Positions 12,583-59,851 of a stretch of 62,568 bases of DNA are shown one piece after another (position 1 is the first letter of the stretch; every line of letters begins with the position of its first letter). The notes below the pieces were generated by a model that saw only the letters and a list, made by a program, of their open reading frames with translations, had not been told where the DNA came from and did not search any database. Position numbers and translations under genes: made by a program. The DNA is taken from the sequence record DRR723986_3102; one strand, written 5' to 3'.

Positions 12583-12585
12583 CCC

Positions 12586-16221: not shown

Positions 16222-16232
16222 ACGATGGCATC

Positions 16233-17135: not shown

Positions 17136-17141
17136 GCTTGC

Positions 17142-42838: not shown

Positions 42839-42872
42839 GGGATATCTCTCCAGAAAAGTTCGCCAATTATAG

Positions 42873-43178: not shown

Positions 43179-43271
43179 TCCCCATCACAGGCTGCCGCAA
43201 CCGCGCAGGCCAGTGGGCTTGAACCCTTAAACAGGGTAACCTCTGCGCTCTCAAGTGCAACGGGTACTACT

Positions 43272-45068: not shown

Positions 45069-45098
45069 TTGTTACGTTAAAGCGCCTGTGGTTATACT
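45069..45098 (+). promoter_or_regulatory. putative sigma70 promoter of the 13-gene operon
   Basis: TTGTTA-N18-TATACT about 65 nt upstream of ATG 45165. Confidence 0.45.
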
Positions 45099-45164: not shown

Positions 45165-46520
45165 ATGACAGCATCCTCCGGCAAATCGCCGTTCGCCCTG
45201 GCAACGGCTCTGGCCCTGACGCTCTACGGCGGCAGCGCACTCGCCCAGGATCCGTCCGCGACGGTTACCGCCGAGGACATCCCAATCGCCAGCGCGGGCG
45301 ATGACCCCGCGCCGTCCGACCCGGTCGCCGTACCGACGGCCAGCGATCAAGCCGACGAACCGGTAGACAGCCTGCTGGACCAGGAGGACGACGCAGAGCC
45401 CCCCATTCCGGACAGTGCAACCGTTACCGATTACCGGCGAGCCGTGGCCCGGATCGAGGATGAATCCGGCGCCTATGGCGAGGGGATGTCAGAGCAACTC
45501 CTCGGGCTGGGGCTTGCCCTGCAACAGCAGGGTCGCCACCAGGAAGCGATTGACGTGTTCAAACGCGGCGTGCACCTGACGCGGATCAACGAGGGCCTGT
45601 ACGGCGCCGGCCAGATTGCCCTGCTGGAATCGGAGATTGCCAGCCATGTTGCGATTGGCGAGTTCTCCGCAGCGGACGAGCGCCAGGTCTACCTGTACCG
45701 GGTACAACAGCGGGCCCTGGCTACCGGGGCGGAGCGAGCCGAGGCCCTGATGCAACAGGCCCGGTGGCAACGCCGGGCCTATGACCTGGGCCTGGGTGAA
45801 TATGGCTACACTCGCCTGCTGACCATGTGGGACCTGTACCGCATGGCGTTGAACGACATTGCCGAGCGAGAGGGCGAATCTTCACCCAAGCTGCTGCGGC
45901 CGCTCATGGGTATGCTCAAGTCCCAGTACCTGATCGCCGGATTCCAGGGCGAGACCGCCAACGGGGCCTTTAACGTCGACGCCTTTGGCACCCGCCAGGA
46001 CGACGGCCGTTTCAATGCCTATCGCAGCTCGTCTTTCAAACGCGGCGAGGCGGTGCTTTCCGCCATCTACGAGATCAACAAGCGCAACACCGAAGGCGAC
46101 ACGCTGACCGCCGCCCGGGACCTGGTGATGCTGGGCGACTGGCGTTTCTGGCACGGGATGCGGGAGGGCGCACTGGACAGCTATCGGGAAGCGCTGGCGG
46201 AACTTGCAGCGCTCGATGATGCCCAAGAACAGGTGGAGCGCCTGTTTGGCGCTCCAGTACCGCTGCCGGATCTCGACGGGGTGCGGCCGCTGCCGCCGAC
46301 AACAAGCCCGGATATGGCGGATTTACTGGTAGAATTCGGGGTCAGCGCCGGTGGCAGAGTGGTTGACGTGAGCCGGATAGACGACGGCCTGGAGAACGAG
46401 TCCCAGGCCAATCGCCTGATCAGGCAACTGCGCCAGACCCGGTTCCGGCCGCGATTCGAAGGCAATGAGGCTGTGGACACCGACAAATTGAGCTGGGCAT
46501 ATGATACGGCAAGCTGGTAA
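45165..46520 (+). CDS. secreted TPR-like protein with C-terminal TonB-C-like domain
   Basis: signal peptide ending ALA-Q; helical TPR-like core; C-term VEFGVSAGGRVVDV...RQTRFRPRFEGNEAV resembles TonB_C. Confidence 0.7.
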   Translation: MTASSGKSPFALATALALTLYGGSALAQDPSATVTAEDIPIASAGDDPAPSDPVAVPTASDQADEPVDSLLDQEDDAEPPIPDSATVTDYRRAVARIEDESGAYGEGMSEQLLGLGLALQQQGRHQEAIDVFKRGVHLTRINEGLYGAGQIALLESEIASHVAIGEFSAADERQVYLYRVQQRALATGAERAEALMQQARWQRRAYDLGLGEYGYTRLLTMWDLYRMALNDIAEREGESSPKLLRPLMGMLKSQYLIAGFQGETANGAFNVDAFGTRQDDGRFNAYRSSSFKRGEAVLSAIYEINKRNTEGDTLTAARDLVMLGDWRFWHGMREGALDSYREALAELAALDDAQEQVERLFGAPVPLPDLDGVRPLPPTTSPDMADLLVEFGVSAGGRVVDVSRIDDGLENESQANRLIRQLRQTRFRPRFEGNEAVDTDKLSWAYDTASW

Positions 46521-47682
46521 CGCTTTGGACAAGGACGGCACAGTAATCAGGTTTGCCCTGATCGCCGCCGCCTGCGCGCTGCTCACCGGCTGCCCGAGTG
46601 CCAGTAACCCGACCATGCCGCAGCCGCCGTCAACTCCGAGTTCGGCGCCTTCCTCCAGCAGCTCGTCCAGCTCCAGCAGCAGTTCCAGTTCCAGCAGCAG
46701 CTCCTCCAGCTCGAGCAGCAGCTCGTCCAGTAGTCAGTCTTCGAGCTCTCCGTCCGCCAGCGCGCCACCCTCGGGAGCTTCCTCACCCTCGTCGCCCGGC
46801 AGCACCAGTGCGTCAACCGGCGGTGGTACACCTGCCAGCGAGGGCGGTGCCAGCGGTAACGAGGACATGGGGGATTTCCCCCAGGGCGAATTCCCTGGCG
46901 AAACTGCAGGCGGTGGCGACCCGACGGCCGGGGCCGGCGGCAATGCCGAACCTTCCTTCGAGGACGGCGGCGGCCAAGCGGGTGCCGAAGCCGGCGATCC
47001 CGGGTTCGGCGAGGGCATGGCCGGAGGCGATGCGCTGCCGGATATGCGAGATACGGAGCCGAGTTTTGAACAGGTCCTCGGCGCCATGGAAGATGCCATG
47101 GGTGAACCAGGCGACAGCGGCCAGGCGGGGGGGCAAACCGGCAGCGAGGGCACGCAGCAAGCGAGCGGCGGCGGTGGCTATCCCGGCTCACCGATGCCCG
47201 GGTATGAAGCGGGACAGGGCCAGCCCGGCGGCCAGGGTGGTCGCGGTCCGCTGACCCCGGCCGAGCAGGTGGCAATCCTCGATGCCCAGTTGGAGCAGGG
47301 TACCGGCGAATTCGACGCCATGATCCTCGAAGAACAGCAGGCCCAGCGCCAGGCTGCCCGGGAGCGACCAGCACCCAGCACACCTATTGAGCCCGCCGGC
47401 GGCAGTGGCGGTGGCGGTGCCTATGGCGGCGACCCCGCCTACGACAGTGAAGTCGCCGATGGCGGTGGTTACAGCGGTGGCGGCGGTATGGGCGGCGCTA
47501 CCCGGGGCGGCCAGGTACCGCAAAATACGGCGAAGTACCCGCCGCCGTCGGATATCCCCGACGGCAACGATGACGACGTGGTCGCGCGCCAGCTGCGAGA
47601 GGCCGCCATGCGCGAGCCAGATCCTGCGGTGCGCGAGAAGCTGTGGGACGAGTACCGCAAGTACAAGGGCATCACGCCGTGA
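46501..47682 (+). CDS. low-complexity Ser/Gly/acidic lipoprotein with ordered C-terminal helical domain
   Basis: lipobox LLTGC; poly-Ser; C-term DIPDGNDDDVVARQLREAA...LWDEYRKYK; start approximate. Confidence 0.75.
   Translation: MIRQAGNALDKDGTVIRFALIAAACALLTGCPSASNPTMPQPPSTPSSAPSSSSSSSSSSSSSSSSSSSSSSSSSSSSQSSSSPSASAPPSGASSPSSPGSTSASTGGGTPASEGGASGNEDMGDFPQGEFPGETAGGGDPTAGAGGNAEPSFEDGGGQAGAEAGDPGFGEGMAGGDALPDMRDTEPSFEQVLGAMEDAMGEPGDSGQAGGQTGSEGTQQASGGGGYPGSPMPGYEAGQGQPGGQGGRGPLTPAEQVAILDAQLEQGTGEFDAMILEEQQAQRQAARERPAPSTPIEPAGGSGGGGAYGGDPAYDSEVADGGGYSGGGGMGGATRGGQVPQNTAKYPPPSDIPDGNDDDVVARQLREAAMREPDPAVREKLWDEYRKYKGITP
46651..46734 (+). repeat. poly-serine tract (28 consecutive Ser codons)
   Basis: mixed TCC/TCG/AGC/AGT codons in frame. 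Confidence 0.9.
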
Positions 47683-48887
47683 ACCTGATCCTGCGCCTTG
47701 CGCTTGCCGGCTTGCTGACGACGCTGTTGAGCGCCTGCGTCAACCAGACCGTGAAGAGCACATCGGTACCGGCGATCCAGAGTGCCAGCGTGGAAGTGCC
47801 TGAGGGGCAGCTGCTGGATGTCGGCATCGCCATTTTTGATCCCGGCCTCGATGACTACGACGAAGACCAGCAGATCTACCCGGAAGTGCGCAAAGCCGAG
47901 GCGCGCTACATGCCACAGCTACTGGCAGACGCCATGCAGGATAGCGGAGCCTGGGGCGCAGTTCGCGTGGTGCCCGGACAGGCCACCATTACTGACCTGT
48001 TGGTAGAAGGTCAGATCCTGCAATCCGACGGCGAGGAATTGCAACTGCTGATCACCGCCACCGACTCGCGGGGCTTCGTGTGGCTCAACCGGAAATACAC
48101 CGGCAACGCGAGCCGTTACGCCTACGACAGCGTGACCCGCACCCAGTACGACCCGTTTCAGGTCATCTACAACCGGATTGCCAATGACCTCCTGCAAAAG
48201 CAGGAAGAACTGCGCGCGAAGGATCGCGAGTCCATCCGCACGGTCACCGAACTGCTGTTCGCACAGAGCTTCTCCGAAGAGGCCTTCACCGGCTATCTCG
48301 GCAAAACGCGCAAGGGCCAGTACCTGATCCTGCGCCTGCCCGCAGAGAATGACCCCATGCTGGAACGGGTGCGCAGCATCCGCGAGCGCGACCTGCTGTT
48401 CGTCGACACGCTGCAGGAATACTACGACGGCTTCAACGGCCAGATGCAGGACCCCTACCAGGAGTGGCGCAAGCTGACCTACGAGGAAGCCATGGCGCTG
48501 CAGGAGCTGAAAGCGGAAAGTACCCGGCGCCTTATCGCGGGCGGGCTGGCGGTGCTCGGTGGGATCGCAGCCGCGGGCGGTGGCGACCGGACTACCCGGG
48601 CGGCCGGGAACGTTGCCATCATCGGCGGCGGCTACCTGCTCAAGAGCGGCCTGGAGAAACGCGCCGAGGCGCAGATTCACGTTGAGGCGCTGGAAGAACT
48701 GGGCATGTCCCTCGAGGCGGAAATCACACCCCACGTGATCGAGCTCGAAGACCGCACGGTGATGCTGAGCGGCAATGTCGAGGACCAGTATGACCAGTGG
48801 CGCGAGCTGCTGGCAGATATTTACCGCGCTGAAATCGGTGCCCTGGAGCTGCCCGCCGAAGCGGGCACCGACAACGACACGCCCTGA
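47679..48887 (+). CDS. lipoprotein with glycine-rich hydrophobic hairpin
   Basis: GTGA overlap with previous gene; lipobox LLSAC; AGGLAVLGGIAAAGGG...VAIIGGG. Confidence 0.8.
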   Translation: MNLILRLALAGLLTTLLSACVNQTVKSTSVPAIQSASVEVPEGQLLDVGIAIFDPGLDDYDEDQQIYPEVRKAEARYMPQLLADAMQDSGAWGAVRVVPGQATITDLLVEGQILQSDGEELQLLITATDSRGFVWLNRKYTGNASRYAYDSVTRTQYDPFQVIYNRIANDLLQKQEELRAKDRESIRTVTELLFAQSFSEEAFTGYLGKTRKGQYLILRLPAENDPMLERVRSIRERDLLFVDTLQEYYDGFNGQMQDPYQEWRKLTYEEAMALQELKAESTRRLIAGGLAVLGGIAAAGGGDRTTRAAGNVAIIGGGYLLKSGLEKRAEAQIHVEALEELGMSLEAEITPHVIELEDRTVMLSGNVEDQYDQWRELLADIYRAEIGALELPAEAGTDNDTP

Positions 48888-48924
48888 ACGGGGCGTCCAA
48901 TCCCCTTTCCCGACTGAAGACTGC

Positions 48925-50469
48925 ATGCCAGCCGACAACAAGCCTGTTCAGCCAACCCCGTTCGAGGCCGCCCCTGCCAGTCAGCCGGCGGCAGCGACGG
49001 CGGACGCGACCCAGCAGAATGCCGCCAGTGGCCCGCCACCCTGGGTGCTGCCCGCACTCGGGGGCTTGTTGTTACTGGGTGCGCTGGTCGTGTTCTGGCT
49101 GCCGGGGCAGGTAGATCCCCAGGCGCCACCGGAAATCGCCGCACCCTCGACCGATACCGAACCCGGCTCGATATCGCCGGCGGGTAAACCGGCAACGACG
49201 TCGGCAGTCGAGGAAGCCTCACCCTGGTCAGACGCGCAGCTGGCCCGTCTGCGCAAGGAAGCCCAGGACGTGCTCGCGGAATTGCTCGACGTACAATTCC
49301 GGCTGGAGGAGCGCGGCATCGACCAGTGGGCAGCGGCGGCTTTCGCCGAGGCCGTGGCCATTGCCCAGGCAGGTGACGCGCTATACAAAAACCGGGACTT
49401 CGAGCCCGCCACCGCCGCCTATCGCGACAGCCTCGAGCGCCTGCTGGCGCTGGAGGCGGGGTTGCCGGAGGCATTTCAGGCACAACTGGCAGCGGCCAAT
49501 GAGGCCATCGAGGCTGGCGATTTGGAGCAGCTGGCCGCGGCACTGGCGCTGGCGGAACTGATCGAGCCCGGACACCCGGAGCTGGCCACCCTGGCCCAAC
49601 GCGGCGAGCGACTGCCAGAGCTGATGGCCCGGATGACCCGCGCCGCCGACGCGGAGCAAGCCGATGACCTGGCTACGGCCAGAGACTCGCTGCAGGCGGC
49701 GGTGGAACTCGATGGCGCCCACCAGCGTGCAGCGAGTGAACTCGCCAGGGTCAGTGCCGCCTATCAGCAGCAGCAATTCAACGATGCAATGAGTGCCGGA
49801 TACACCGCCCTCGATGCGGGACAGTTCGACAGTGCACGCTCGGCTTTCCGTCGGGCGGGCCAGCTGCAGCCCGGTTCAACCGAGGCCGCGAGCGCCCTGC
49901 AGGAAGTCGCCACCGCCGAAACCGGCAGTCGCCTGCAGCGCCTGCAGCAGCAGGGCGCACGCCAGGAAGGCAGTGAGAGCTGGCAAGCGGCCGTCGAGTC
50001 CTACCAGGCCGCACTCGCCATCGACAGTAATATCCTGTTTGCCCGTGAAGGACTGGAACGCAGCGAACCCCGCGCCCGCCTGGACAAGCAGTTCCGCACC
50101 GCGCTGGATGATCCCGATCGGCTGTCGGATGTCGCCGTCGCCGAGGCCACCGAAAACCTGCTGCGCCAGGCCCGGCGCATCACCGCTGCCGGGCCCGTGC
50201 TGCAGGAGCAGATCACGAAGCTGACCGCGCTATTGGAAAAAGCCAATACGCCGCTGGCTGTTGCCCTCAAGTCGGACGGTGAAACCGAGGTCATCATCTA
50301 CAAGGTGGCCCGCCTGGGCCGCTTCGAGCAGCACCGGCTGACCTTGCGTCCTGGCAGCTACACCGCCCTGGGTACTCGCAACGGTTATCGCGACGTACGC
50401 ACGACCTTTCGGGTCAGCCATGAATCCAATAGCGGGCCGGTGACCATCGCCTGCACTGAGCCCATCTGA
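48925..50469 (+). CDS. bitopic membrane protein: TM, long helical/TPR-like region, C-terminal PEGA-like domain
   Basis: TM WVLPALGGLLLLGALVVFWLP; Ala/Glu-rich helices; LRPGSYTALGTRNGY. Confidence 0.75.
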   Translation: MPADNKPVQPTPFEAAPASQPAAATADATQQNAASGPPPWVLPALGGLLLLGALVVFWLPGQVDPQAPPEIAAPSTDTEPGSISPAGKPATTSAVEEASPWSDAQLARLRKEAQDVLAELLDVQFRLEERGIDQWAAAAFAEAVAIAQAGDALYKNRDFEPATAAYRDSLERLLALEAGLPEAFQAQLAAANEAIEAGDLEQLAAALALAELIEPGHPELATLAQRGERLPELMARMTRAADAEQADDLATARDSLQAAVELDGAHQRAASELARVSAAYQQQQFNDAMSAGYTALDAGQFDSARSAFRRAGQLQPGSTEAASALQEVATAETGSRLQRLQQQGARQEGSESWQAAVESYQAALAIDSNILFAREGLERSEPRARLDKQFRTALDDPDRLSDVAVAEATENLLRQARRITAAGPVLQEQITKLTALLEKANTPLAVALKSDGETEVIIYKVARLGRFEQHRLTLRPGSYTALGTRNGYRDVRTTFRVSHESNSGPVTIACTEPI

Positions 50470-52536
50470 ATGACAGTCAGCGATCCCAACCCCCAGTCGA
50501 TTAAGCCCAGCAGCTTCCAGCCACTGGCGGACGCCGCACCACCCCCGCGGCAACGGGGCAACCCGCTGCGCTGGGTGCTGGCCGGCAGTGCCTTGCTGTT
50601 CCTGCTGATCATGGGCTTCCTGCTGACCTCGCGCTCGGTGCAGGTCGATGTGCTCGCAGAGGCTGAGGCAGAAATCGACATCAGCGGGCTGGCGCTGCCT
50701 TTCGGGGAGCGCTACCTGATGCGCCCAGGGACTTACCGGCTGCAGGTCAGCGCCCCTGGCTATTATCCTCACGATGCGGAGCTGCAGGTCAGCGAACAGG
50801 ACAGCCAGACCGTGCAGGTGGTCATGCAGCCCCTTCCCGGCCGCCTCAGCATCCAGAGTGAACCCGATGGCGCCCAGGTGCTGGTCGATGGCGAGCTTAT
50901 CGGCACCACGCCGCTCGCCGATCATCCGGTGGCGGCAGGTAGCCATGAACTCACCCTGCAGGCCGACCGCTACCAGCCGCTGGTCAGCCCCCTGGAGGTC
51001 GAGGGGCGGGAGATCCAGCAACAGCTGGAACTGCGCCTGGAACCAGCCTGGGCCGAGGTGTCGATTAACAGCGCGCCGCCCGGGGCCAGCATCCTGGTCG
51101 ATGGCGAGAACCTGGGCCAAACGCCCGCCACGGTCGAAATCATGGAAGGCGAACACCAGCTAATCCTGCAACTGCCGGCGTTCAGCGACTGGCAGCAAAA
51201 CCTGGAGGTGACGGCCGGACAGGCACAGGACCTGGGCGAGATCGCACTGCAAGCAGCCGCGGGGATTCTAAACCTGACCAGCAGCCCTGGCGGCGCCAAT
51301 GTCACCCTCGATGGTGAATTCCAGGGCCAGACTCCGCTGGAACTGGAAATCACCCCCAACCGTGACTACCGACTGGTACTGTCACGACCCGGGTATCGCC
51401 GCTACAGCGAGACCGTGCAGCTGGCAGCCGGCAGCCGTGCCGACAAGGCGATCACCCTGCGCGCCCAGCTGGGCGAGGTCCGTTTTGATATCGAGCCGGC
51501 CGGTGCCGTGTTGCGCCTCAACGGCAAGCCCGCGGGCAAGGGCAGCCAGCGCCTGTCGCTGCCGGCCTTCGAGCACAGTATCGAGGTCTCCCTCGACGGC
51601 TACGCCACCGTGCGCCGCAAGGTAACCCCGCGGCCGGGATTGGAACAGCTGGTGGCCATCAGCCTGCAGACCCGGGATGAAGCCCGTCTGGCCCAGCTCA
51701 AGCCGGAGCTCACCACAGCCCTGGGCCAGACCATGCTGCTGTTCAACCCGGCGGAATCACCGCGAGCCGAATTCACCATGGGCGCCTCGCGCCGCGAGCC
51801 TGGTCGTCGCGCCAACGAGGTCCTGCACCCGGTGCGCCTGGAGCGCATGTTCTACCTGCAGACCACCGAGGTGACCAACGCCCAGTTCCGCCAGTTCCTG
51901 GCCAGCCACAACTCCGGCCAGATCGAGGGCAACAGTCTCAACCGGGAGCACCAGCCCGCAGCACAGGTAAGCTGGCAGCAGGCAGCAAGGTTCAGCAACT
52001 GGCTGAGCAAGCGCGAGGGATTGGAGCCTTTCTACCGCGAGACCAATGGCATCATCAGTGGCTACAACCCCTCCTCCACCGGCTATCGGCTGCCCACCGA
52101 GACGGAGTGGGCCTGGGCGGCGCGAGTCCAGGGCGACCTGCTGCTCAAGTTCACCTGGGGAGACAACTTTCCCCCCACCGAGAAAGTGGAAAACTATGCG
52201 GACAACACCTCGGCCTACGTCACCGGGCGCATCCTCAACGGCTATACCGACGACCATGTAGTCAGCGCACCGGTGGCCAGCTTCCCGCCGAATCACCGCG
52301 GCCTGTATGACCTGGGCGGCAACGTCGCCGAATGGGTGCACGACGTGTACAGTATCCCTTCGGCCAACGGCACCCTGGAAGTGGACCCGCTGGGAGCGCA
52401 GAACGGCGACAACTATGTCATCCGCGGGGGCAGCTGGGCGCTAAGCAAACTGGCCGAGCTGCGCCTCTCCTTCCGCGATTATGGGCAAGCGGGACGGGAT
52501 GACGTAGGATTCCGACTGGCTCGCTACGCGGAATAG
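50470..52536 (+). CDS. TM-PEGA repeats-FGE/SUMF1-like domain protein
   Basis: about five PEGA repeats (S.P.GA.V.VDG...G.TP); FTMG, EVTNAQF, RLPTETEW, GLYDLGGNVAEW, RGGSW, GFRL. Confidence 0.9.
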   Translation: MTVSDPNPQSIKPSSFQPLADAAPPPRQRGNPLRWVLAGSALLFLLIMGFLLTSRSVQVDVLAEAEAEIDISGLALPFGERYLMRPGTYRLQVSAPGYYPHDAELQVSEQDSQTVQVVMQPLPGRLSIQSEPDGAQVLVDGELIGTTPLADHPVAAGSHELTLQADRYQPLVSPLEVEGREIQQQLELRLEPAWAEVSINSAPPGASILVDGENLGQTPATVEIMEGEHQLILQLPAFSDWQQNLEVTAGQAQDLGEIALQAAAGILNLTSSPGGANVTLDGEFQGQTPLELEITPNRDYRLVLSRPGYRRYSETVQLAAGSRADKAITLRAQLGEVRFDIEPAGAVLRLNGKPAGKGSQRLSLPAFEHSIEVSLDGYATVRRKVTPRPGLEQLVAISLQTRDEARLAQLKPELTTALGQTMLLFNPAESPRAEFTMGASRREPGRRANEVLHPVRLERMFYLQTTEVTNAQFRQFLASHNSGQIEGNSLNREHQPAAQVSWQQAARFSNWLSKREGLEPFYRETNGIISGYNPSSTGYRLPTETEWAWAARVQGDLLLKFTWGDNFPPTEKVENYADNTSAYVTGRILNGYTDDHVVSAPVASFPPNHRGLYDLGGNVAEWVHDVYSIPSANGTLEVDPLGAQNGDNYVIRGGSWALSKLAELRLSFRDYGQAGRDDVGFRLARYAE

Positions 52537-52539
52537 GCC

Positions 52540-52764
52540 ATGCTCCGAGTATTACCCAGCATCACCCTCGCCTTCGTCCTCACGGCCGCTGGCGCAGTTG
52601 CCCAGGAGCCGGTGGCGGAAAGCGACGAGTCCGCGGAGCCTGAAACCAGCCAGCCGGCGCAGTCAGGGGCAGCGGCCCCGGCCGGCGATGAATCGCCCTT
52701 CGACTACGAATCATCCGAGGAAATCTCGGAAGACCTGTCGGTCTCATTCCCGGTGGATATCTAG
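52540..52764 (+). CDS. small secreted acidic protein
   Basis: signal peptide ending AVA-Q; C-term EEISEDLSVSFPVDI; 3- and 9-nt gaps to neighbours. Confidence 0.75.
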   Translation: MLRVLPSITLAFVLTAAGAVAQEPVAESDESAEPETSQPAQSGAAAPAGDESPFDYESSEEISEDLSVSFPVDI

Positions 52765-52773
52765 GAAGCGTCA

Positions 52774-53571
52774 ATGAAAAATCGCATGTCATCCGAGTTC
52801 ATCTACCAGCTGTTTGCCCTGCTGATCGCCGTGATCGTGGTGCATGCGGTCTACGTCGGTGCCGTGCGGCCAAGCGCAGACGCCCAGCTCAAGCAGCAGG
52901 CGGAACTACAGGCTTCCGGGGCGGACTATGTCCCCGAGCGCAGCCTGGCGGTGGTCATTCGCGATTTCGAACAGGAGGCCTGTTTCATTCTCCTGATCTG
53001 GGCGCTTGCCATCATGGGCTACAAGGCCCGGCGCACCATCGCCGAGCAGGGGCTGGTCGAACGTGCCCTGGTTGATATCCCTGAGGGCACCAGTGTGCTG
53101 CCTGAAGACGCGCGGGAGTACAGCCGCGCCCTGGAGGCGCTGCCGCCACAGGAGCAGGACTACCTGCTGCCGCGCACCCTGCTCTCGGCCCTGCAGCGAT
53201 TCGCCACCACCGGCAGCATCCAGGCCGTATCCGACACCATCAAGGAACAATGCGATGTCGAGGCCGACCGGCTCGACTCCGAGCTGTCCATGGTGCGCTA
53301 TATCGCCTGGGCAATACCGTCCATCGGGTTCATCGGCACCGTGCGCGGTATCGGTGACGCCCTTGGCCAGGCCTACAAGGCGGTCGAAGGGGATATCTCC
53401 GGCGTGACCGTGAGCCTCGGAGTCGCGTTCAACAGTACCTTCGTCGCCCTGGTACTCAGCATCATCATCATGTTCTGCCTGCACCAGCTGCAATTGTCCC
53501 AGGAACGCCTGGTACTGGATTGCCAGCGCTACGCCGACAAGCGCCTGCTGCGCCACCTGGTGGCCCATTGA
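52774..53571 (+). CDS. MotA/TolQ/ExbB proton-channel family protein
   Basis: IPSIGFIGTVRGI and LGVAFNSTFVAL TM signatures. Confidence 0.9.
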   Translation: MKNRMSSEFIYQLFALLIAVIVVHAVYVGAVRPSADAQLKQQAELQASGADYVPERSLAVVIRDFEQEACFILLIWALAIMGYKARRTIAEQGLVERALVDIPEGTSVLPEDAREYSRALEALPPQEQDYLLPRTLLSALQRFATTGSIQAVSDTIKEQCDVEADRLDSELSMVRYIAWAIPSIGFIGTVRGIGDALGQAYKAVEGDISGVTVSLGVAFNSTFVALVLSIIIMFCLHQLQLSQERLVLDCQRYADKRLLRHLVAH

Positions 53572-53573
53572 CC

Positions 53574-54842
53574 ATGACCCCCGCACTGCTGGACATCAAC
53601 GACAGCAACCTGCAACTGTGGCATGGCGACAGCCTTGTGCAGAGTCCGGGCTACGCCCTGCTCGACGGCAGCGGCTACCTGTTCGGCAGCCCGGCGCGGG
53701 GCGCCGCGCGCCGCCAGCCGCGCAATATCAATACGCGTTTCTGGTGGCAGCTGAATATGGAGCCACTGCAACCAGCGCTGGGGCCGGCCCGGCACACCGC
53801 CGACCTGGTTCACGCGCACCTGCAGGCCCTGCACGGCGAGGCGGGAGCGCCCACTGAACTGATTCTCGCGGTCTCCGGCAGTCTTGGACGGGAGCAGTTG
53901 TCCCTGCTGCTGGGCATCATCCAGGTCTGCCCCTTTGATGCCATTGGGCTGGTGAATCGCAGCGTCGCGCTGGCCAGTCCCTACGCGGGCAACGGACGGC
54001 TGTTTCACCTGGAGATCCAGCTGCACCAGGCGGTGCTCACCGAGCTCGCCAACGACGGCGATACCGTCACCGTCGAACGCACCGTACCTCTACCCGGCTG
54101 CGGGCTGCTGCAACTGCAGGAACGGCTGGTGGAAATCATTGCTGCCGCCTTTGTCCGCCAGACCCGCTTCGATCCCCGGCGCAAGGCGGATACCGAGCAG
54201 ACCCTGTACGACATCCTGCCGGCGGCCCTGCGCGACCTGCAGCAGCGCGGGGAAATCAACATCGAGGTCAATGGCTACCGGGCGCGGATCAATCGCAAGG
54301 ATCTGCTGGACGCGGGCCAGCGCCTGTTCACCAGCGCACCGGAAGCCATGGGCGTCTGGCGTCCGGATGACCGGGTGCTGCTCGATCCCGTCGCGGCCCT
54401 GCTGCCCGGTCTGGCGGAGGAATTCGAGGCGGTCGAGGTACTGGCCGCTGATGCCCTGCCGCTCGCGGTCGAACGCAACCTGGACCACCTGTTGCAGCGC
54501 GGTGAAAGCCTGAATTTCGTGTCCACCCTGCCCTGCAGCGGCGAGCCGATCGCGCCGCGAACCGAGGGCCTGCAGTCGTCGCCACCGGTAGCGCCAGAAC
54601 CCGCAATCGCAGCTGCAACCCACCTGCTGGTGGCCGATGCCGCGCACCCCCTGCCCGGCTCGCCACTGCTGCCGGAGGGCTGGACCTTGCAGGCAGAAAA
54701 CGGCGGCTGGCGGGTGACAGGCCCCGAGCCGGACCTGCTGCGGGTAAACGGGGACGTCTACCGGGGCCAGGCCCTGGGCGCCGGCGACCGGATACAGATC
54801 GGTGACGGGCGGGAGGCCCGGCTGATCAAGGTTCTGGAGTAG
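53574..54842 (+). CDS. degenerate Hsp70/actin-fold domain fused to C-terminal FHA-like domain
   Basis: collinear similarity to the DnaK nucleotide-binding domain (see findings); C-term LRVNG...LGAGDRIQIG. Confidence 0.6.
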   Translation: MTPALLDINDSNLQLWHGDSLVQSPGYALLDGSGYLFGSPARGAARRQPRNINTRFWWQLNMEPLQPALGPARHTADLVHAHLQALHGEAGAPTELILAVSGSLGREQLSLLLGIIQVCPFDAIGLVNRSVALASPYAGNGRLFHLEIQLHQAVLTELANDGDTVTVERTVPLPGCGLLQLQERLVEIIAAAFVRQTRFDPRRKADTEQTLYDILPAALRDLQQRGEINIEVNGYRARINRKDLLDAGQRLFTSAPEAMGVWRPDDRVLLDPVAALLPGLAEEFEAVEVLAADALPLAVERNLDHLLQRGESLNFVSTLPCSGEPIAPRTEGLQSSPPVAPEPAIAAATHLLVADAAHPLPGSPLLPEGWTLQAENGGWRVTGPEPDLLRVNGDVYRGQALGAGDRIQIGDGREARLIKVLE

Positions 54843-54850
54843 GTCGCGCT

Positions 54851-55942
54851 ATGGTCAGGCGGAAGCGCGGATTCACCACCTTCAACCTGAGCTTTCTGGA
54901 TATTATGTCCTGTGGCTTCGGCGCGGTGGTGCTGGTCTTCCTGATCATCGACCACTCCATCGAAGTGGAATCCAAGGAACTCAACCGGGACCTGCTGTCC
55001 GAGGTGAGGCTGCTGGAAGAGGATGTCACCGACGGTGAGGAGGGCCTGGTGCGCCTGCGCAACACCCTGTCGGACGTCGACCTGCAGCTGGTCGAGGCCC
55101 AGGGTCGCGCCACCCGGATCATCGAGGAGATGTCCGAATACGAGGCCCTGATCGAAGACCTGCGCCGGGACGGGTTCACCGACAGTTCAGACATCGAGGA
55201 ACTGAAGGCGGAAATCCTGTCGCTGGAGGAAGAGGTCAAGAAACTGCGCCAGGCCTCCGAGGACGACAGCGGCAACAGCGCCCGGACCTTCGTCGGCGAA
55301 GGCAACCGGCAGTACCTTACAGGCCTCAACCTCGGCGGGCGCAACATTGCAATCCTGGTGGACGTGTCCTCGAGCATGCTGGCGGACCGGCTGGTCAATG
55401 TGATCCGCCTGCGCAACATGGGGCAGGATCTCCAGCGCCGCGCGGAGAAGTGGACCCGGGCGCTGAACACGGTGGACTGGCTCACCGCGCAATTGCCAGT
55501 CGGCAGCAACTACCAGGTGATTACCTTCAATACCGCCGCCACCCCGGCCCTGGCCGGCACCGAGGACAAGTGGCTCGAAGTGGCGGACCAGGCACAGCTG
55601 GAGAAGGTCACCGCCGCGCTGCGCGACATCACCCCCACCGGCGGTACCAGCCTGGAGAACGCCTTCCTCGCCCTGCAACGGCTGTCCCCTGCCCCGGACA
55701 ATATTTTCCTCATCACCGACGGCCTGCCCACCCAGGGCACCAAGCCCCCCCGTGGCACCACCATCAGCGGCCGCGACCGGCAGCGCCTGTACCGGGACGC
55801 AGTGAAGCAATTGCCCAAGAACGTGCCGATTAATATTATCCTCGCACCCATGGAGGGCGACCCGATGGCGGCCTCCGAATTCTGGCAGCTGGCCCAGGTC
55901 AGCCGCGGCTCGTTCATGAGCCCGTCCAGGGACTGGCCCTAG
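54851..55942 (+). CDS. ExbD-like TM + coiled coil + vWA domain protein (paralogue 1)
   Basis: NLSFLDIMSCGFGAVVLVFLII; MIDAS DVSSS...GGT...ITDG. Confidence 0.85.
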   Translation: MVRRKRGFTTFNLSFLDIMSCGFGAVVLVFLIIDHSIEVESKELNRDLLSEVRLLEEDVTDGEEGLVRLRNTLSDVDLQLVEAQGRATRIIEEMSEYEALIEDLRRDGFTDSSDIEELKAEILSLEEEVKKLRQASEDDSGNSARTFVGEGNRQYLTGLNLGGRNIAILVDVSSSMLADRLVNVIRLRNMGQDLQRRAEKWTRALNTVDWLTAQLPVGSNYQVITFNTAATPALAGTEDKWLEVADQAQLEKVTAALRDITPTGGTSLENAFLALQRLSPAPDNIFLITDGLPTQGTKPPRGTTISGRDRQRLYRDAVKQLPKNVPINIILAPMEGDPMAASEFWQLAQVSRGSFMSPSRDWP

Positions 55943-55954
55943 GAGCCCGCCGCC

Positions 55955-56956
55955 ATGCCGAGCAAGCGCCGCGCACCCGAAGAGTTCTCCCTGTCCTTCC
56001 TGGACGTGATCTGCTGTGGCTTTGGCGCGGTTATCCTGCTGTTGATGATCACCAAGACCGTGCAACCGCAGATCATCGAGGCTTCAACGGTCAACCTCGA
56101 GGGCCTGGTGGCCGAACTCCAGGAGCAGGTGTTTGAACTGCGCGGCGAGACCCGGATTCTCAACCGCGACCTGAACGCCAAGCAGGAGCAGTTGTCGGAG
56201 TATGAGGAGCGCATCGCCATCCTGCGCGGCCAGCTGGCCAGCTCGAAGTCCCGCTATGACAGCATCCAGGTACAGCGCAACAGCAATGACGTGATCACCG
56301 ACCAGCTGGCTATTGCACGCCAGTCGCTGACCGAGGAGATGAAGCGATTGCTGGGCAGCCAGTACCAGTCGAAGAACAACCTGATCGGCGGCATACCGGT
56401 CGACAGCGAGTACATTATTTTCATCATCGACACCTCGGGGTCGATGTTCTCCTACAGCTGGGACCGGATGATGGCGGAACTGGAGGCCACCCTGAGTATC
56501 TACCCCGAGGTCAAGGGCATCCAGATCATGAACGATATGGGTAACTATATGTTCAGCCGCTACCGGGGCCAGTGGATACCGGATACACCAGGACGCCGGC
56601 AGGTGATCATGCAGAACCTGCGCAACTGGAACGTGTTCTCCAACTCCAGCCCCGTGGAGGGCATCACCCAGGCAATTCGCACCTTCTACGACCCGAAAAA
56701 GAAGATCAGTATCTACGTCTTCGGCGACGAATTTACCGGTGAGTCCATCGCCCAGGTCGTCGACACCGTCGACCGGCTGAATCGCGAGGCCGCAGACGGG
56801 GCCCGCCGGGTGCGCATCCATGCGGTGGGCTTCCCCGTACAATTTATCAGGGCACCGCACCTGCAAACCACGGGCATTCGCTTTGCTACACTTATGAGAG
56901 AACTGACCTATCGCAACGGAGGCACGTTTGTCGGGCTTAACGATTTTCGCCCCTGA
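55955..56956 (+). CDS. ExbD-like TM + coiled coil + vWA domain protein (paralogue 2)
   Basis: SLSFLDVICCGFGAVILLLMI; MIDAS DTSGS...VFGDEF. Confidence 0.85.
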   Translation: MPSKRRAPEEFSLSFLDVICCGFGAVILLLMITKTVQPQIIEASTVNLEGLVAELQEQVFELRGETRILNRDLNAKQEQLSEYEERIAILRGQLASSKSRYDSIQVQRNSNDVITDQLAIARQSLTEEMKRLLGSQYQSKNNLIGGIPVDSEYIIFIIDTSGSMFSYSWDRMMAELEATLSIYPEVKGIQIMNDMGNYMFSRYRGQWIPDTPGRRQVIMQNLRNWNVFSNSSPVEGITQAIRTFYDPKKKISIYVFGDEFTGESIAQVVDTVDRLNREAADGARRVRIHAVGFPVQFIRAPHLQTTGIRFATLMRELTYRNGGTFVGLNDFRP

Positions 56957-57743
56957 GGTCCGTACCGGCCGTCGCCTGCTGCAGCGGGTCGGCCTGCTGC
57001 TCGCGCTCGCCTGCCTGGCGGCCTGCGGCACCCAGAAAGTCGTGGTCAAAGGCAACTTCCCCCAGCCGCTGATGAGCAAACTGCCCCTGACCATAGGGGT
57101 CTGGTACGACGAAGGTTTCAGCAAGCACGAATTTTTCGACGAAGCCAAGGGTCGCGCCGAGGCATCCTGGGTGGTGCAGACCGGCGCCGCCCAGGTCCAG
57201 ATGTGGGATATTCTGTTGGACGGGATGTTCAAGGAGCTGATTCACATGCGCGCTCGCCCGGCCCCGGGTGTGCTGAACCCGGTGGTCGATGCGGTATTGA
57301 TTCCCAGCGTGGAGGAGTTGCAGTACGCCATCCCGCAGCACACCAATGTGAAGGTGTATGAGATATGGATGCGTTACCGCTTTGACCTGGTCAGGACCAG
57401 TGGCGACCCCATCGCCTCCTGGACCATGTCATCCTACGGCAAGACCCCGACCGCCTTCCTGCGCTCGGACACCGAGGCCGTCAACCTCGCGGCGGTGGTG
57501 GCACTGCGTGACGCAGGCGCTAACTTCGCGGTAAATTTTACCCGCATCCCCGAGGTGCGAGACTGGATGGAAGGGCGCCAGCGCCCGGGTCAGCGGCAAC
57601 CGCCAGCAGCGGTCGCGCAGCCGGCCAATCCAATTGAAGCAACGGCTCCTGAGCAGGCGACGGGAGCCAGGGCACCAGGCGGCGCCAAACCAGCGCCGGC
57701 CGAGCGTTCGGTGGCAAGGCCGCCGGGAGATCGACGGACATGA
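56928..57743 (+). CDS. lipoprotein, hypothetical
   Basis: lipobox CLAAC; alpha/beta core; Pro/Ala-rich tail; start uncertain. Confidence 0.7.
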   Translation: MSGLTIFAPEVRTGRRLLQRVGLLLALACLAACGTQKVVVKGNFPQPLMSKLPLTIGVWYDEGFSKHEFFDEAKGRAEASWVVQTGAAQVQMWDILLDGMFKELIHMRARPAPGVLNPVVDAVLIPSVEELQYAIPQHTNVKVYEIWMRYRFDLVRTSGDPIASWTMSSYGKTPTAFLRSDTEAVNLAAVVALRDAGANFAVNFTRIPEVRDWMEGRQRPGQRQPPAAVAQPANPIEATAPEQATGARAPGGAKPAPAERSVARPPGDRRT

Positions 57744-58402
57744 AACTCTGGACCTTTGCCGCCGCGGCAGGCGTTGCCGCACTGTTGACCGGCTGCGTTA
57801 CCGCCACGGTCGACGAAATGGTGTTCAACGAACCCACCGAGGGCATTGGCGACTCGACGGTAGTCATCCTCGGCCGGCGTCACGCCAGCGATTACGAAAC
57901 CGAGCCGGACTTCATCAAGTGCGTGGGCAACCACATCGCCTCGCGCGATCGCTCCATCGAGGTGATCGGTGAGCTGGACTTCCTGAATGCCCTCTACCCC
58001 TGGTTTGAACCGCGCACCGCACCGCTGCGCCCGCAGGACATCGACAAACTGATGGCCCAGCCACCCGTGGCAGCCAAGATGGCCTCGCTGAGAACCGAAT
58101 ACCTGATCTGGATCGACGGCAGCACGGTGCGCACCAACTCGGCGGGCTCAATGACCTGTGGCATCGGCCCCGGCGGCGCAGGCTGCTTCGGTTTCGGCAC
58201 CTGGGGCAACGACTCGGATTACGAGGCGACGATCTGGGACTTCACCGACGCGGCAGAAGTTGGTCGGGTGAACACCAGTGCCAGCGGCCAGTCCTATATG
58301 CCCGCCCTGGTGGTGCCGATCCCGATCATTGCGCCGGTTCAGGGCACGGCCTGTGATGGCATCGGCGACCAGCTCCTCGAATTCCTGTCCAGCGAATACT
58401 GA
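57740..58402 (+). CDS. lipoprotein, hypothetical (Cys-containing)
   Basis: ATGA overlap; lipobox LLTGC; CGIGPGGAGCFG hairpin. Confidence 0.8.
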   Translation: MKLWTFAAAAGVAALLTGCVTATVDEMVFNEPTEGIGDSTVVILGRRHASDYETEPDFIKCVGNHIASRDRSIEVIGELDFLNALYPWFEPRTAPLRPQDIDKLMAQPPVAAKMASLRTEYLIWIDGSTVRTNSAGSMTCGIGPGGAGCFGFGTWGNDSDYEATIWDFTDAAEVGRVNTSASGQSYMPALVVPIPIIAPVQGTACDGIGDQLLEFLSSEY

Positions 58403-58408
58403 TCTGCC

Positions 58409-59851
58409 GTGAAGATGACGCTGAGATCACTGGCAAGCCTGCTACTCCCACTGGGCACCGCGCTGCTGCTTGCCGGCTGCTCCGGCAACCCGGCGACCGG
58501 CACGCCGACCGTGGTGCTGAGTTCTCAGGGCAAGGAAGTTGCCATCGGCGAGGAGATGCATGAAAAGATGATCGCCGAGGGCGCCGCCTACGACGATCCC
58601 GAATTACAGGCCTACGTCGATCGGGTAGGCCAGGCCTTGGTTGCCAACAGTGACCAGCCAGACCTTAAGTTCACCTTCACGGTAATCGACGCGCCGGACA
58701 TCAATGCCTTCGCAACTCCCGGCGGCTTTATCTATGTCAATCGCGGCCTGCTGGCCTACCTCGACAACGAGGCCGAGCTGGCAGGCGTGCTGTCTCACGA
58801 GATCGGCCACGTGACCGCCCGGCACCACGCCCGGCGCCAGACCGCCGATGTCACCAACAAGGTTCTTGCCACCACCGTGGGCATTCTCACTGGCAGCCGG
58901 GACGTGATGGATGCCTCCACCATGTACGGCGCCGAACTGCTCAGCGGCTATGGCCGGGACATGGAACTGGAAGCGGACGGCCTGGGCGCCGAGTACATGC
59001 ACAAAACCGGATACGACACCGATGCCCTGCTGGAGGTGATCGGCGTGCTCAAGGACCAGGAGCAATTCCAGCGGGTCAAGGCAAAGGCCAGCGGCAAGCC
59101 GGTCAAAAGCTACCACGGCCTGTACGCCACCCACCCGCGCAATGACAAGCGGCTACAGACAGTCATCCAGGCGGCGGGCGACCTGGACCGGGACGAGTAC
59201 ATCGAAAGCCCGGAGCAACCCGGTGAGTTCCGGCGCCAAATCAACGGCCTGGTCTGGGGGCAAAGCATCCAAGGCCAGTCTGACCCTGATCGCTATTATC
59301 ACAACAAACTGGGATTCACCTTCAAACACCCCCCCGGCTGGACGGTCAACGCCGGCGCGAGCGCCATCACCACGGCGGCCAGCGACAACAACGCGTCACT
59401 GACTATCACCTTGCGTCGCCGGGATGCAAAGGTCACCCCACAGTCGGTGCTGGAGAGCGGCGCCAACGGTACCCTGAGCATTGGCAAGGAACTGGAACAG
59501 GCCGGGCTCAATGGCTATACCGCAGTGGCGAGTGACGGCAGTACGGCGCGTCGCCTGGCAGTCATCGACCACAATTACAGCTACCTGTTCGAAGGCCAGG
59601 CCCAGGACTTTGCCAGCGCCGATGCCACGCTGCTGGCCATCATTGAGAGTTTCCGGCCAATGCACCCGAAGGAGCGCCAGAGCGGCACCCCCACCTACAT
59701 CAGCTACATCCAGGTTCCGCGCGGAGCGACCCTGGCCAGCCTCGCATCCAGCCTGCGGATTCCCGATGCAGAAGCCCAGCTGCGCCTGATCAACGGCTTC
59801 TACCCCCGCGGTGAACCCCGCACCGGCGACTGGATCAAAGTCATCAAATAG
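58409..59851 (+). CDS. M48-family Zn metalloprotease lipoprotein with C-terminal LysM-like domain
   Basis: lipobox LLAGC; NAFATPGG, HEIGH, ELEAD, THP; C-term VPRGATLASLA...LRLING. Confidence 0.9.
   Translation: MKMTLRSLASLLLPLGTALLLAGCSGNPATGTPTVVLSSQGKEVAIGEEMHEKMIAEGAAYDDPELQAYVDRVGQALVANSDQPDLKFTFTVIDAPDINAFATPGGFIYVNRGLLAYLDNEAELAGVLSHEIGHVTARHHARRQTADVTNKVLATTVGILTGSRDVMDASTMYGAELLSGYGRDMELEADGLGAEYMHKTGYDTDALLEVIGVLKDQEQFQRVKAKASGKPVKSYHGLYATHPRNDKRLQTVIQAAGDLDRDEYIESPEQPGEFRRQINGLVWGQSIQGQSDPDRYYHNKLGFTFKHPPGWTVNAGASAITTAASDNNASLTITLRRRDAKVTPQSVLESGANGTLSIGKELEQAGLNGYTAVASDGSTARRLAVIDHNYSYLFEGQAQDFASADATLLAIIESFRPMHPKERQSGTPTYISYIQVPRGATLASLASSLRIPDAEAQLRLINGFYPRGEPRTGDWIKVIK

Follow-up and report, generated by a model that had tools for sequence, protein, structure and literature searches.

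A tightly packed block of 13 genes

The DNA stretch DRR723986_3102, from a marine gammaproteobacterium, is analyzed here at its full length of 62,568 nucleotides and referred to as the window; it carries 13 co-oriented open reading frames (ORFs) on the plus strand, designated g1 to g13, which fill positions 45165 to 59851. An initial annotation, made from the sequence alone, regarded these genes as the operon of an energized machine of the cell envelope. Here, we describe the genes and their conservation and weigh the proposal that they encode one machine driven by the proton motive force (PMF). The close packing of the 13 co-oriented genes was borne out, since both the gene coordinates and the gaps that had been listed were reproduced. 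With starts chosen as those that lie ahead of signal peptides and lipoboxes, the junctions from g1/g2 to g12/g13 measure −20, −4 (GTGA), +37, 0, +3, +9, +2, +8, +12, −29, −4 (ATGA), and +6 nt. The 20-nt overlap of g1 and g2 and the 29-nt overlap of g10 and g11 were absent from the earlier list of gaps and follow from the sole in-frame starts ahead of the lipoboxes; these overlaps, a conserved motif in g6, and a tail motif common to g4 and g5 (both described below) are features that the initial annotation had not seen.

The block is isolated from its neighbors by 141 nt upstream, toward a gamma-glutamyltransferase gene, and by 90 nt downstream, toward an amidohydrolase gene. A sigma-70-like promoter candidate (TTGTTA-18-TATACT; 9 of 12 matches; positions 45069 to 45098, plus strand) lies in the 141-nt gap 5' of g1. 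No Rfam family was found between positions 44500 and 60500. Signal peptides and lipoprotein sorting were judged by eye and with a simple sequence script, and the compartments assigned in this way cover the whole envelope, with one protein in the cytoplasm, five in the membrane, two secreted, and five that are lipoproteins.

The block is conserved as a unit

Next, the conservation of the block was examined. A profile search with the g7 family, which encodes the channel subunit described below, reached at least 598 species genomes, and the loci examined were the 80 best, with g7 identities of 61 to 88%. These loci came mainly from Halieaceae, Microbulbifer, and Porticoccus/Porticoccaceae, with a few Azotimanducaceae, Pseudohongiellaceae, and Spectribacter titles and many unclassified metagenome-assembled genomes (MAGs). 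The organism-named close relatives of g7 belonged to Halieaceae (Halioglobus, Parahaliea, and Pseudohalioglobus; 88 to 98% identity).

Fifty-two of the 80 loci were long enough for analysis of gene order (at least 7.9 kb upstream and at least 5 kb downstream of g7). The genes g1, g4, g5, and g7 to g12 were present in all 52 long loci, g3 was present in 51, g2 in 43, and g13 in 35; the low complexity of g2 makes it hard to detect, which bears on its count. A collinear arrangement of g1, g3, g4, g5, and g7 to g12 on a single strand was found in 47 of the 52, down to 61% g7 identity, and median junctions in the other loci ranged from −4 to +27 nt. The genes are co-conserved as a block. Five long loci were not collinear: in L051 and L069, g11 and g12 lie just upstream on the other strand; in L072, the best g1 match lies elsewhere; L076 lacks g3; and L077 reflects an ORF-calling artifact. 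The families of the flanking genes were each found in at most 19 of the 80 loci, and the flanks of the window itself were limited to L001 to L026. Because collinearity held in 47 of 52 loci while the flanks were lineage specific, the arrangement is more than chance would give. The turnover of the flanks and the collinearity of the block therefore define g1 to g12 as the unit of inheritance, with g13 as a frequent add-on.

In three loci (L051, positions 780 to 2274; L052, positions 696 to 2079; and L069, positions 1080 to 2449), the g11-g12 pair lies 5' of g2 on the opposite strand and not after g10. By title, these loci are two uncultured Pseudomonadales/Gammaproteobacteria MAGs and one Azotimanducaceae. 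In the same three loci, g4 encodes ∼750 amino acids (aa) as opposed to the usual ∼510 aa, and the end of g6 reads ISADNAVTFPVDI. Four further loci (L058, L074, L044, and L050; 62 to 64% g7 identity) show the full gammaproteobacterial gene order under MAG titles of Saprospiraceae, Phenylobacterium, or Enterobacteriaceae; these titles are probably errors of binning or labeling and not signs of transfer.

g7, g9, and g10 form a putative motor core

The product of g7 (positions 52774 to 53571, plus strand; 265 aa) is a channel subunit of the MotA/TolQ/ExbB family and presumably forms the pentamer of a 5:2 motor. Its earlier assignment to MotA/ExbB was confirmed by a Pfam match to MotA_ExbB (PF01618) over residues 134 to 249, with 54.3 bits against a cut-off of 22.9. 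A 39-member g7 profile aligned by hhalign with Escherichia coli TolQ over the last two transmembrane helices (probability, 93.5%; E value, 2.3e-7). In 39 diverse relatives, residues W179, P182, G185, F186, G188, F219, N220, and T222 were invariant, and the stretches W-A-I-P-S-I-G-F-I-G-T-V-R-G-I and L-G-V-A-F-N-S-T were nearly so. According to the parts of PMC12204202 available to us, a Thr of the last transmembrane helix lines the pore and faces the Asp of the partner protein.

The proposed partners of g7 are g9 (positions 54851 to 55942, plus strand; 363 aa) and its paralogue g10 (positions 55955 to 56956, plus strand; 333 aa), each of which would contribute one half of a central heterodimer. 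The two proteins can be aligned over their full length (20% identity) and have the same architecture, in which an N-terminal helix with the motif S-F-L-D-x-x-x-C-G-F-G-A, with its Asp at position 17, is followed by a coiled coil of ∼115 residues and a vWA domain. Across 26 sequences of g9 and g10, residues S14, F15, D17, C21, G22, G24, and A25 as well as D171, S173, and S175 were invariant. The Asp of a single helix is the residue used by MotB, ExbD, and TolR. The DxSxS metal-site motif of the vWA domain is invariant in both paralogues, and metal binding is predicted from this motif only.

The vWA domain of g9 was recognized by Pfam VWA_2 (31.4 bits; cut-off, 27), and an isolated g10 segment gave an E value of 0.1, which is below the cut-off; among five g10 orthologs scanned, four showed weak matches to VWA or VWA_2 (best, 0.0012). 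Searches of the PDB with the single g9 sequence and with a joint g9/g10 profile returned coiled-coil-type matches only. With g7, g10 is among the two best-conserved genes of the block (25 to 87% identity, and at least 49% in 78 of the 80 loci). A vWA operon of the Bat/MoxR type was ruled out, as neither a MoxR ATPase nor a DUF58 family was found among the 13 proteins by Pfam or NCBIfam.

The initial annotation had described g9 and g10 as twin ExbD-vWA proteins. The pairing of an invariant Asp helix with a vWA domain was substantiated, and the ExbD likeness is to be read as an analogy. No ExbD, TolR, or MotB family was found among the 13 proteins by Pfam or NCBIfam, and in the same searches, g9 and g10 had no ExbD/TolR periplasmic domain and no OmpA-like peptidoglycan-binding domain. 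They may thus be functional analogues of ExbD, TolR, and MotB at most, and not members of those families.

An arrangement of this kind has been proposed in silico as a new motor class (PMC12204202; Mol Biol Evol 2025). In the parts of that study available to us, tolQ-like genes are accompanied by heterologous pairs of vWA proteins with a TolR-like transpore helix, AlphaFold 3 (AF3) models of relatives place two Asp residues inside the Thr ring of the pentamer, and the family is reported from Proteobacteria, without tolR or exbD nearby and with its function called unknown. The g7-g9-g10 trio has the same architecture as described there, namely, a helix with Asp, a C-terminal vWA domain, a heterologous pair, an adjacent tolQ-like gene, and no tolR or exbD nearby. 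Because of this fit, the motor itself is not new. We assign g7, g9, and g10 to the class by architecture and not by sequence comparison to its Idiomarina seed, so that their membership is putative.

Two bitopic proteins and a cytoplasmic Hsp70-fold protein

The block encodes two bitopic proteins of the inner membrane. The larger, g5 (positions 50470 to 52536, plus strand; 688 aa), consists of a cytoplasmic tail, one transmembrane helix, approximately five beta-sandwich modules of the PEGA/CarboxypepD_reg type, and a head with the FGE fold; it has no lipobox. Pfam recognized PEGA in four stretches (201.5 bits), CarboxypepD_reg (55.2 bits), and FGE-sulfatase over residues 434 to 685 (142.4 bits), so the PEGA-FGE architecture assigned earlier was upheld. 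A profile of the head found FGE (1.3e-29), PorK/GldK (6.4e-25), and PvdO (1.6e-18) in the PDB, and the best NCBIfam family was GldK, with 103.1 bits against a cut-off of 350. True FGE carries a catalytic cysteine pair. No cysteine at all occurs in g5, and none of 21 orthologs has a Cys after the RGxSW motif; because it lacks cysteine, the head is not a canonical FGE and is regarded as noncatalytic.

The second bitopic protein, g4 (positions 48925 to 50469, plus strand; 514 aa), has a cytoplasmic tail, one helix (hydrophobic segment at residues 41 to 59), a periplasmic TPR region, and a conserved C-terminal beta segment. The TPR region was recognized by Pfam TPR_2 (29.0 bits), and TPR families were found in all five orthologs scanned. 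The initial annotation had named g4 a helical-PEGA protein; TPR repeats are present, and PEGA went unconfirmed, as none was found in the C terminus either by Pfam on the isolated segment or by hhalign against g5. The hhalign match between g4 and g5 was limited to the N-terminal tails (E value, 1.8e-4; probability, 49%). Both cytoplasmic tails carry a common I-x-P-x-x-F-like motif ∼20 to 30 residues before the membrane helix, for which the evidence is modest and comes from sequence comparison.

The sole cytoplasmic protein is g8 (positions 53574 to 54842, plus strand; 422 aa). Its AlphaFold2 (AF2) model (predicted local distance difference test [pLDDT], 89.8) has the fold of an Hsp70 nucleotide-binding domain (NBD), followed by a C-terminal beta domain that is FHA-like. 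With residues 1 to ∼320, the top Foldseek matches in the PDB were the NBDs of Hsp70 proteins (Ssz1, DnaK, and BiP), with E values of ∼1e-14 and template modeling (TM) scores of 0.56 to 0.68 normalized to the NBD-only targets. At two positions, which we take to be those of the Gly-rich phosphate loops of canonical Hsp70, g8 reads LDINDSN and HLEIQLHQ, with similar readings in 18 orthologs. Neither a substrate-binding domain nor a match to Pfam HSP70 was found in g8; no Pfam family matched the window protein, five orthologs, or isolated segments, and a single-sequence search of the PDB gave nothing useful. In a neighboring Atlas cluster (score, 0.94), FHA was present in 99% of the members. Of the earlier description of g8 as an Hsp70-fold/FHA-like protein, the NBD fold is thus well supported, and the FHA-like part is considered below together with the other points of doubt.

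Two secreted proteins

The first gene, g1 (positions 45165 to 46520, plus strand; 451 aa), encodes a secreted TPR protein that ends in a TonB-C domain, in agreement with its initial description. The N terminus resembles a Sec signal peptide by eye, and Pfam TPR_2 matched with 27.2 bits. A profile of 18 orthologs matched the TonB C-terminal domain in the PDB (6i97_D; 6.2e-7; profile positions 363 to 433), with more than 10 TonB entries (TonB/TonB2) retrieved; a single-sequence search of the PDB gave nothing useful. Pfam TonB_C was found in three of five g1 orthologs, in one above the cut-off (29.3 versus 24.6), and the window g1 itself had no Pfam TonB_C match. No membrane anchor was found, in that g1 has no hydrophobic 19-mer at the threshold used, and a TPR region stands in place of the TonB/TolA linker.

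The product of g6 (positions 52540 to 52764, plus strand; 74 aa) is a small, acidic, predicted secreted protein. A hydrophobic, signal-peptide-like N terminus and a variable acidic linker precede a nearly invariant C-terminal motif of 19 residues, [FY]-x-[PA]-[ST]-E-x-I-S-E-D-x-x-V-x-F-P-V-D-I-COOH, which was not found in the published literature. In 76 of 77 loci, g5 and g7 enclose an ORF ending in [FY]-P-x-D-I-stop, the sole miss being a locus truncated at its edge, and E(−15), D(−10), P(−4), D(−2), and I(−1) were invariant in all 76. BLAST detected g6 in only 25 of the 52 long loci. The GC content per codon position is 0.68/0.49/0.75. As judged from sequence, g6 is a real gene and not a filler ORF.

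Five lipoproteins

All five of the lipobox proteins that the initial annotation had listed, including an M48 protease, were found. The product of g2 (positions 46501 to 47682, plus strand; 393 aa) has an LTGC lipobox at residues 28 to 31 and a long low-complexity region of Ser, Gly, and acidic residues. This Ser/Gly/Glu-rich region includes ∼30 uninterrupted serines, and the orthologs range from ∼230 to >500 aa. Apparently, only the last ∼60 residues are conserved, and a C-terminal match to DUF6381 was weak (0.005).

The conserved lipoprotein g3 (positions 47679 to 48887, plus strand; 402 aa) consists of a lipobox, an N-terminal alpha/beta domain, and a long helical hairpin that includes a Gly-rich segment. 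The lipobox Cys was invariant in 20 sequences, and the AF2 model had a pLDDT of 78.6. Foldseek matches in the PDB were the DUF330 protein XCC0632 (1.2e-4), the PelC dodecamer (2.4e-4), CsgG (∼1e-3), and TolB (∼2e-3); they cover the N-terminal domain only, with TM scores of 0.2 to 0.25 normalized to the query. At this low coverage, the N-terminal domain of the g3 model is similar to the small alpha/beta domain found in ring-forming lipoproteins and in TolB-N.

The two lipoproteins that follow g10 are g11 (positions 56928 to 57743, plus strand; 271 aa), which has an LAAC lipobox at residues 30 to 33 and for which TTG at 56928 is the only in-frame start ahead of it, and the Cys-rich g12 (positions 57740 to 58402, plus strand; 220 aa), which has an LTGC lipobox. 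The lipobox Cys of g11 was invariant in 20 sequences; in g12, the lipobox residue C19 and C61, C140, C149, and C205 were invariant in 21 sequences. The nearest named Atlas clusters for g12 were CsgG (19%), CT253/DUF7499, and GNA1162-like, which fall below the reliability guide of the tool and serve as leads only. Comparison of g11 with the N-terminal domain of g3 by hhalign gave a weak match that includes the signal peptide (E value, 2.2e-4; probability, 45%), and hhalign matches among the lipoproteins were in general weak and dominated by signal peptides. The profiles of g3, g11, and g12 gave no matches in the PDB beyond chance level at E values up to 1, and no Pfam family was found for g3, g8, g11, or g12 in the window proteins or in five orthologs of each.

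The last gene, g13 (positions 58409 to 59851, plus strand; 480 aa), encodes a zinc-metallopeptidase lipoprotein of family M48 (Pfam Peptidase_M48, 126.2 bits) with an LAGC lipobox and a HEIGH motif. It scored 129 bits with the NCBIfam BepA equivalog, short of the cut-off of 570. No Pfam family was found in residues 261 to 480; LysM had been suspected there by eye and was not found. g13 is an accessory member of the set.

Genomic setting and distant g7 relatives

By Pfam, the remainder of the window contains housekeeping genes (purA, hflKC, hflX, miaA, mutL, amiB-like, queG, rsgA, psd, RNase R, and others). The gamma-glutamyltransferase ORF upstream of the block (positions 42936 to 45023) encodes 695 aa in its longest frame, yet the match to the Pfam domain starts at residue 178 and those to the NCBIfam models at residues 120 to 163; the real start codon probably lies far downstream, or else there is an N-terminal extension. 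A DUF4136 protein (positions 42284 to 43006, minus strand) is encoded just 5' of the gamma-glutamyltransferase gene on the opposite strand, outside the conserved block. Approximately 28 kb upstream lie genes for a PP2C phosphatase (positions 15361 to 16221, plus strand), a Ser/Thr kinase (positions 16233 to 17135, plus strand), and an FHA-domain protein (positions 17142 to 17873, minus strand). This group, at positions 15361 to 17873, is a phospho-threonine signaling trio, and such trios control some envelope machines.

A tblastn search of plasmids gave zero matches with g10; with g7, it gave two distant MotA-like genes in unrelated contexts, both without the other 12 genes. On plasmid pANACY.03 of Anabaena cylindrica (L082; positions 8650 to 10050), a MotA/TolQ/ExbB protein of 466 aa, 30% identical to g7 over half its length, is encoded directly 3' of a cmr operon (type III-B CRISPR), with a viperin-family gene nearby; this is a defense-island context. 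On plasmid pRlBT01d of Rhizobium leguminosarum (L083; positions 4865 to 14319), a g7-like MotA/ExbB gene (32% identity) adjoins genes for a PP2C phosphatase and a Ser/Thr kinase of 1,180 aa with PDZ domains, followed by ORFs without Pfam families.

A proposed PMF-driven machine that spans the envelope

The other ten genes of the block are co-inherited with g7, g9, and g10. We regard it as reasonably probable, with room for doubt, that the 13 genes encode a single PMF-driven, envelope-spanning machine of the Ton/Tol/MotAB class with an unusual central dimer. In such a machine, five g7 subunits would surround a g9:g10 heterodimer to form a 5:2 proton motor, and the two Asp residues of g9 and g10 would accept protons, as their counterparts in MotB, ExbD, and TolR do. 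The coiled coil would lift the vWA heads ∼15 to 20 nm above the inner membrane, which is about the height of the five-module stalk of g5. There, the metal sites of the vWA heads could grip an acidic ligand, which might be the invariant C terminus of g6 or the outer membrane lipoprotein set of g2, g3, g11, and g12. Once the dimer is held there, proton flow would rotate the g7 ring, and the ring would work on the bitopic proteins g4 and g5 as ExbB and TolQ work on TonB and TolA. Through their I-x-P-x-x-F tails, these two bitopic proteins would offer a likely dock for g8, which may serve as a scaffold or regulator, while g1 and the lipoproteins would make up the end proximal to the outer membrane, with g13 as a dispensable accessory. 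In a model of the Agl-Glt machinery, as given in the parts of PMC11761067 available to us, a contact is predicted between the AglR pentamer and an FHA domain beside a membrane helix; because of that prediction, a cytoplasmic adaptor bearing an FHA domain is plausible here.

As the output of the proposed machine, organization of the outer membrane and periplasm, a task like that of Tol-Pal, is more likely than motility or secretion. We favor it because no outer membrane barrel, adhesin, translocon, ATPase, or cargo gene was found in the block or its conserved flanks by Pfam or NCBIfam, because the block sits amid housekeeping genes, and because the nearest relatives by parts are Tol-Pal and Ton.

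Several observations weigh against the single-machine interpretation. All 80 loci fall within one broad gammaproteobacterial group. A sigma-70 scan found 3 sites compared with 1.8 ± 1.5 in shuffled sequences; since this count is not above the shuffle control, the promoter is without statistical support, and the single putative promoter of the initial annotation is a candidate site only. The g9/g10 profile showed no detectable homology to E. coli TolR by hhalign (probability, 0.6%), so that the reading of the N-terminal helices of g9 and g10 as transpore helices draws on a single conserved Asp, together with published models of related proteins, and is correspondingly provisional. Residues 340 to 421 of g8 gave, as a profile against the PDB, only weak FHA matches (CHFR, 0.063; EssC, 0.11; and YukB, 0.37), and Pfam found no FHA domain in g8, the isolated C-terminal segment included. 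Neither a peptidoglycan-binding domain nor an outer membrane beta-barrel was found among the 13 proteins. Finally, in E. coli, the residues after the lipobox Cys decide outer membrane sorting, and we assumed this rule in placing the lipoproteins at the outer membrane.

Alternative interpretations

The alternative that survives best, which we nevertheless consider unlikely, is an apparatus for secretion or export, in which a ring of the lipoproteins g3 and g12 would serve as an outer membrane conduit, as for CsgG and PelC, and would be energized by the motor in the way that GldLM works with the PorK/N ring. The FGE head of g5, with its PorK/GldK match at 6.4e-25 and GldK as its best NCBIfam family, speaks for such an apparatus; however, the GldK score of 103 bits is far from the cut-off of 350, true FGEs score equally well or better, and g5 is a bitopic membrane protein and not a lipoprotein. 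Similarly, the PelC/CsgG-like N-terminal domain of g3 and the CsgG-type lipoproteins among the Atlas neighbors of g12 are suggestive of a conduit, but the fold matches of g3 concern one small domain (TM scores of 0.2 to 0.25 of the query), and the g12 leads are below the reliability guide. The small secreted protein g6 could be a cargo or a plug, yet no translocon, ATPase, polymer synthase, or recognizable cargo gene was found in the block or its conserved flanks.

A machine for surface motility or adhesion after the manner of Agl-Glt, in which the motor would move a trans-envelope complex and the vWA protein would be the adhesin, is improbable. The modules that the block has in common with Agl-Glt, as judged from the parts of PMC11761067 and PMC3169522 available to us, are a TolQ-like motor with heterodimeric partners and TPR, TonB-C, FHA-like, and vWA domains. 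However, the vWA domains here are on inner-membrane-anchored proteins with a coiled coil of ∼115 residues and not on an outer membrane lipoprotein like CglB; the FHA-like and TonB-C modules are on separate proteins, whereas FHA and TonB-C are on one chain in GltG; AglQ and AglS are TolR-like, and g9 and g10 are not. Relatives of the GltA/B/H barrels or other Glt-specific genes were not found in the block or its conserved flanks. Gliding is not known in this bacterial family, which also counts against a motility machine.

Very little speaks for the view that the 13 genes are neighbors without a common function, or two to three unrelated small operons, and that the machine is an artifact of domain names. 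Transcription could start internally in the 37-nt gap before g4, and g13 is missing in 17 of the 52 long loci, but ten genes keep their collinear order in 47 of the 52 while the flanks turn over, with the short median junctions given above; in the three loci where g11 and g12 have moved, they still adjoin the block; and the Pfam-less families g3, g8, g11, and g12 travel with the motor. An anti-phage defense system built on a MotA-like channel, as in Zorya, is hardly credible, for although MotA-like proteins occur in defense islands and the distant g7 relative of the Anabaena plasmid lies beside type III-B CRISPR and viperin genes, PADLOC models matched none of the 13 proteins save g9, through the SMC-like coiled coil of LmuB, no nuclease or other effector domain was found by Pfam or NCBIfam, and the block sits amid housekeeping genes and is kept in place across families.

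A possible distinct class of envelope motor

Beyond the interpretation as one PMF-driven machine, we put forward a more specific proposal, to which we give somewhat less than an even chance, that the block represents a distinct class beside the flagellar stator, Ton, Tol, Agl-Glt, GldLM, and Zorya, with its own parts list and with an envelope task that has not been assigned to any motor. As one element of this joint proposal, the motor would have a heterodimeric coiled-coil driveshaft that ends in two metal-site vWA heads. On the inside, the pseudo-Hsp70/FHA protein g8 would gather g4 and g5, the latter with its PEGA stalk and dead FGE head, through their I-x-P-x-x-F tails. On the outside, a secreted g6 peptide of 50 residues with its invariant acidic C terminus would be the ligand of the vWA heads or of the TPR/TonB-C protein, and the Pfam-less lipoproteins would form the outer membrane end. 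These three elements share the tentative standing of the whole.

Few systems are known to carry the proton energy of the inner membrane to the periplasm or the outer membrane, namely, flagella, Ton, Tol, Agl-Glt, the type IX secretion system (T9SS), and Zorya. Work on the block could show the 5:2 motor principle in a new use and bring out a role for noncatalytic FGE folds and PEGA stalks outside Bacteroidota. It includes at least four protein families without a Pfam model, and it offers concrete parts that can be tested, from the Asp of each helix and the DxSxS sites to the motif that closes g6, the motif common to the g4 and g5 tails, and the cysteine-free FGE head. The block is inherited as a unit across several marine gammaproteobacterial families, some of them culturable (Kineobactrum, Chromatocurvus, Congregibacter, and Microbulbifer). 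It also gives a gene context to the vWA motors, which were predicted in 2025 without partners or function, as far as the available parts of PMC12204202 describe them. The machine had been called undescribed in the initial annotation. That does not hold for the motor core, which the same study had already proposed; for the surrounding set of 12 to 13 genes, no published description was found, as the literature retrieved for the gene combination, the motor type, and the g6 motif consisted of PMC12204202 and papers on Agl-Glt, although Figure 4c and the supplementary figures of PMC12204202, which are outside the parts available to us, may show some of the neighbors.

Comparison with known systems

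The initial annotation held that the gene set matches no canonical operon, and this was corroborated: the block cannot be equated with Tol-Pal, Ton, Agl-Glt, T9SS, or Zorya, as at least one defining part of each was looked for and not found. For Zorya and other defense systems, 12 of the 13 proteins were without a PADLOC match, and g9 matched only through the LmuB coiled coil. With Hsp70, the block shares the NBD fold of g8, but g8 has no substrate-binding domain and no Gly-rich phosphate loops and has an FHA-like domain appended.

Like GldLM (PorLM) of the T9SS, the proposed machine would combine a PMF motor with a beta-sandwich periplasmic stalk and a noncatalytic FGE-fold protein, which in the T9SS is near the outer membrane. 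In contrast, g7 is of the MotA/TolQ type and not a GldL, and g5 unites stalk and FGE head in one bitopic protein that is not a lipoprotein; the GldL, GldM, and GldN families, PorN, SprA, and a cargo C-terminal domain are not found here. Agl-Glt of Myxococcus likewise has a TolQ-type motor with heterodimeric partners and spreads TPR, TonB-C, FHA (here only FHA-like), and vWA modules across the envelope. In the portions of the published accounts available to us, however, its partners are TolR-like, FHA and TonB-C are on GltG, the vWA domain is on the outer membrane adhesin CglB, and the barrels GltA/B/H are present, none of which applies here. A Glt core complex of unknown function has also been described in Gammaproteobacteria (PMC3169522); it has, in the parts available to us, TolR-like AglQ and AglS, which have no counterpart in the block.

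ExbB-ExbD-TonB shares with the block the channel family and the TonB-C domain, and g4 and g5 could be pulled as TonB is. The block differs in that it has no ExbD, no TonB-dependent receptor, and no Pro-rich TonB linker, and its TonB-C domain is not membrane anchored. With Tol-Pal, the block has in common a TolQ-family channel, an Asp-bearing partner helix, a C-terminal domain of the TonB/TolA type (g1), CpoB-like TPR proteins, and outer membrane lipoproteins, and one domain of g3 is weakly TolB-N-like. Here, however, no TolR domain, TolB beta-propeller, or OmpA-like Pal was found by Pfam, NCBIfam, or hhalign, the TonB-C domain belongs to a secreted TPR protein, where Tol-Pal has a membrane-anchored TolA, and the block adds the vWA heads, the PEGA-FGE stalk, the Hsp70-fold protein, and g6.

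In the arrangement of its motor genes, the block is like the vWA motor of PMC12204202, in which a tolQ-like gene is followed by a heterologous, membrane-tethered vWA pair with an Asp helix, without tolR or exbD. Section 8 of that study, the part that bears on this comparison, concerns the motor genes only, whereas the trio described here stands with nine or ten partners in a conserved block of 12 to 13 genes.

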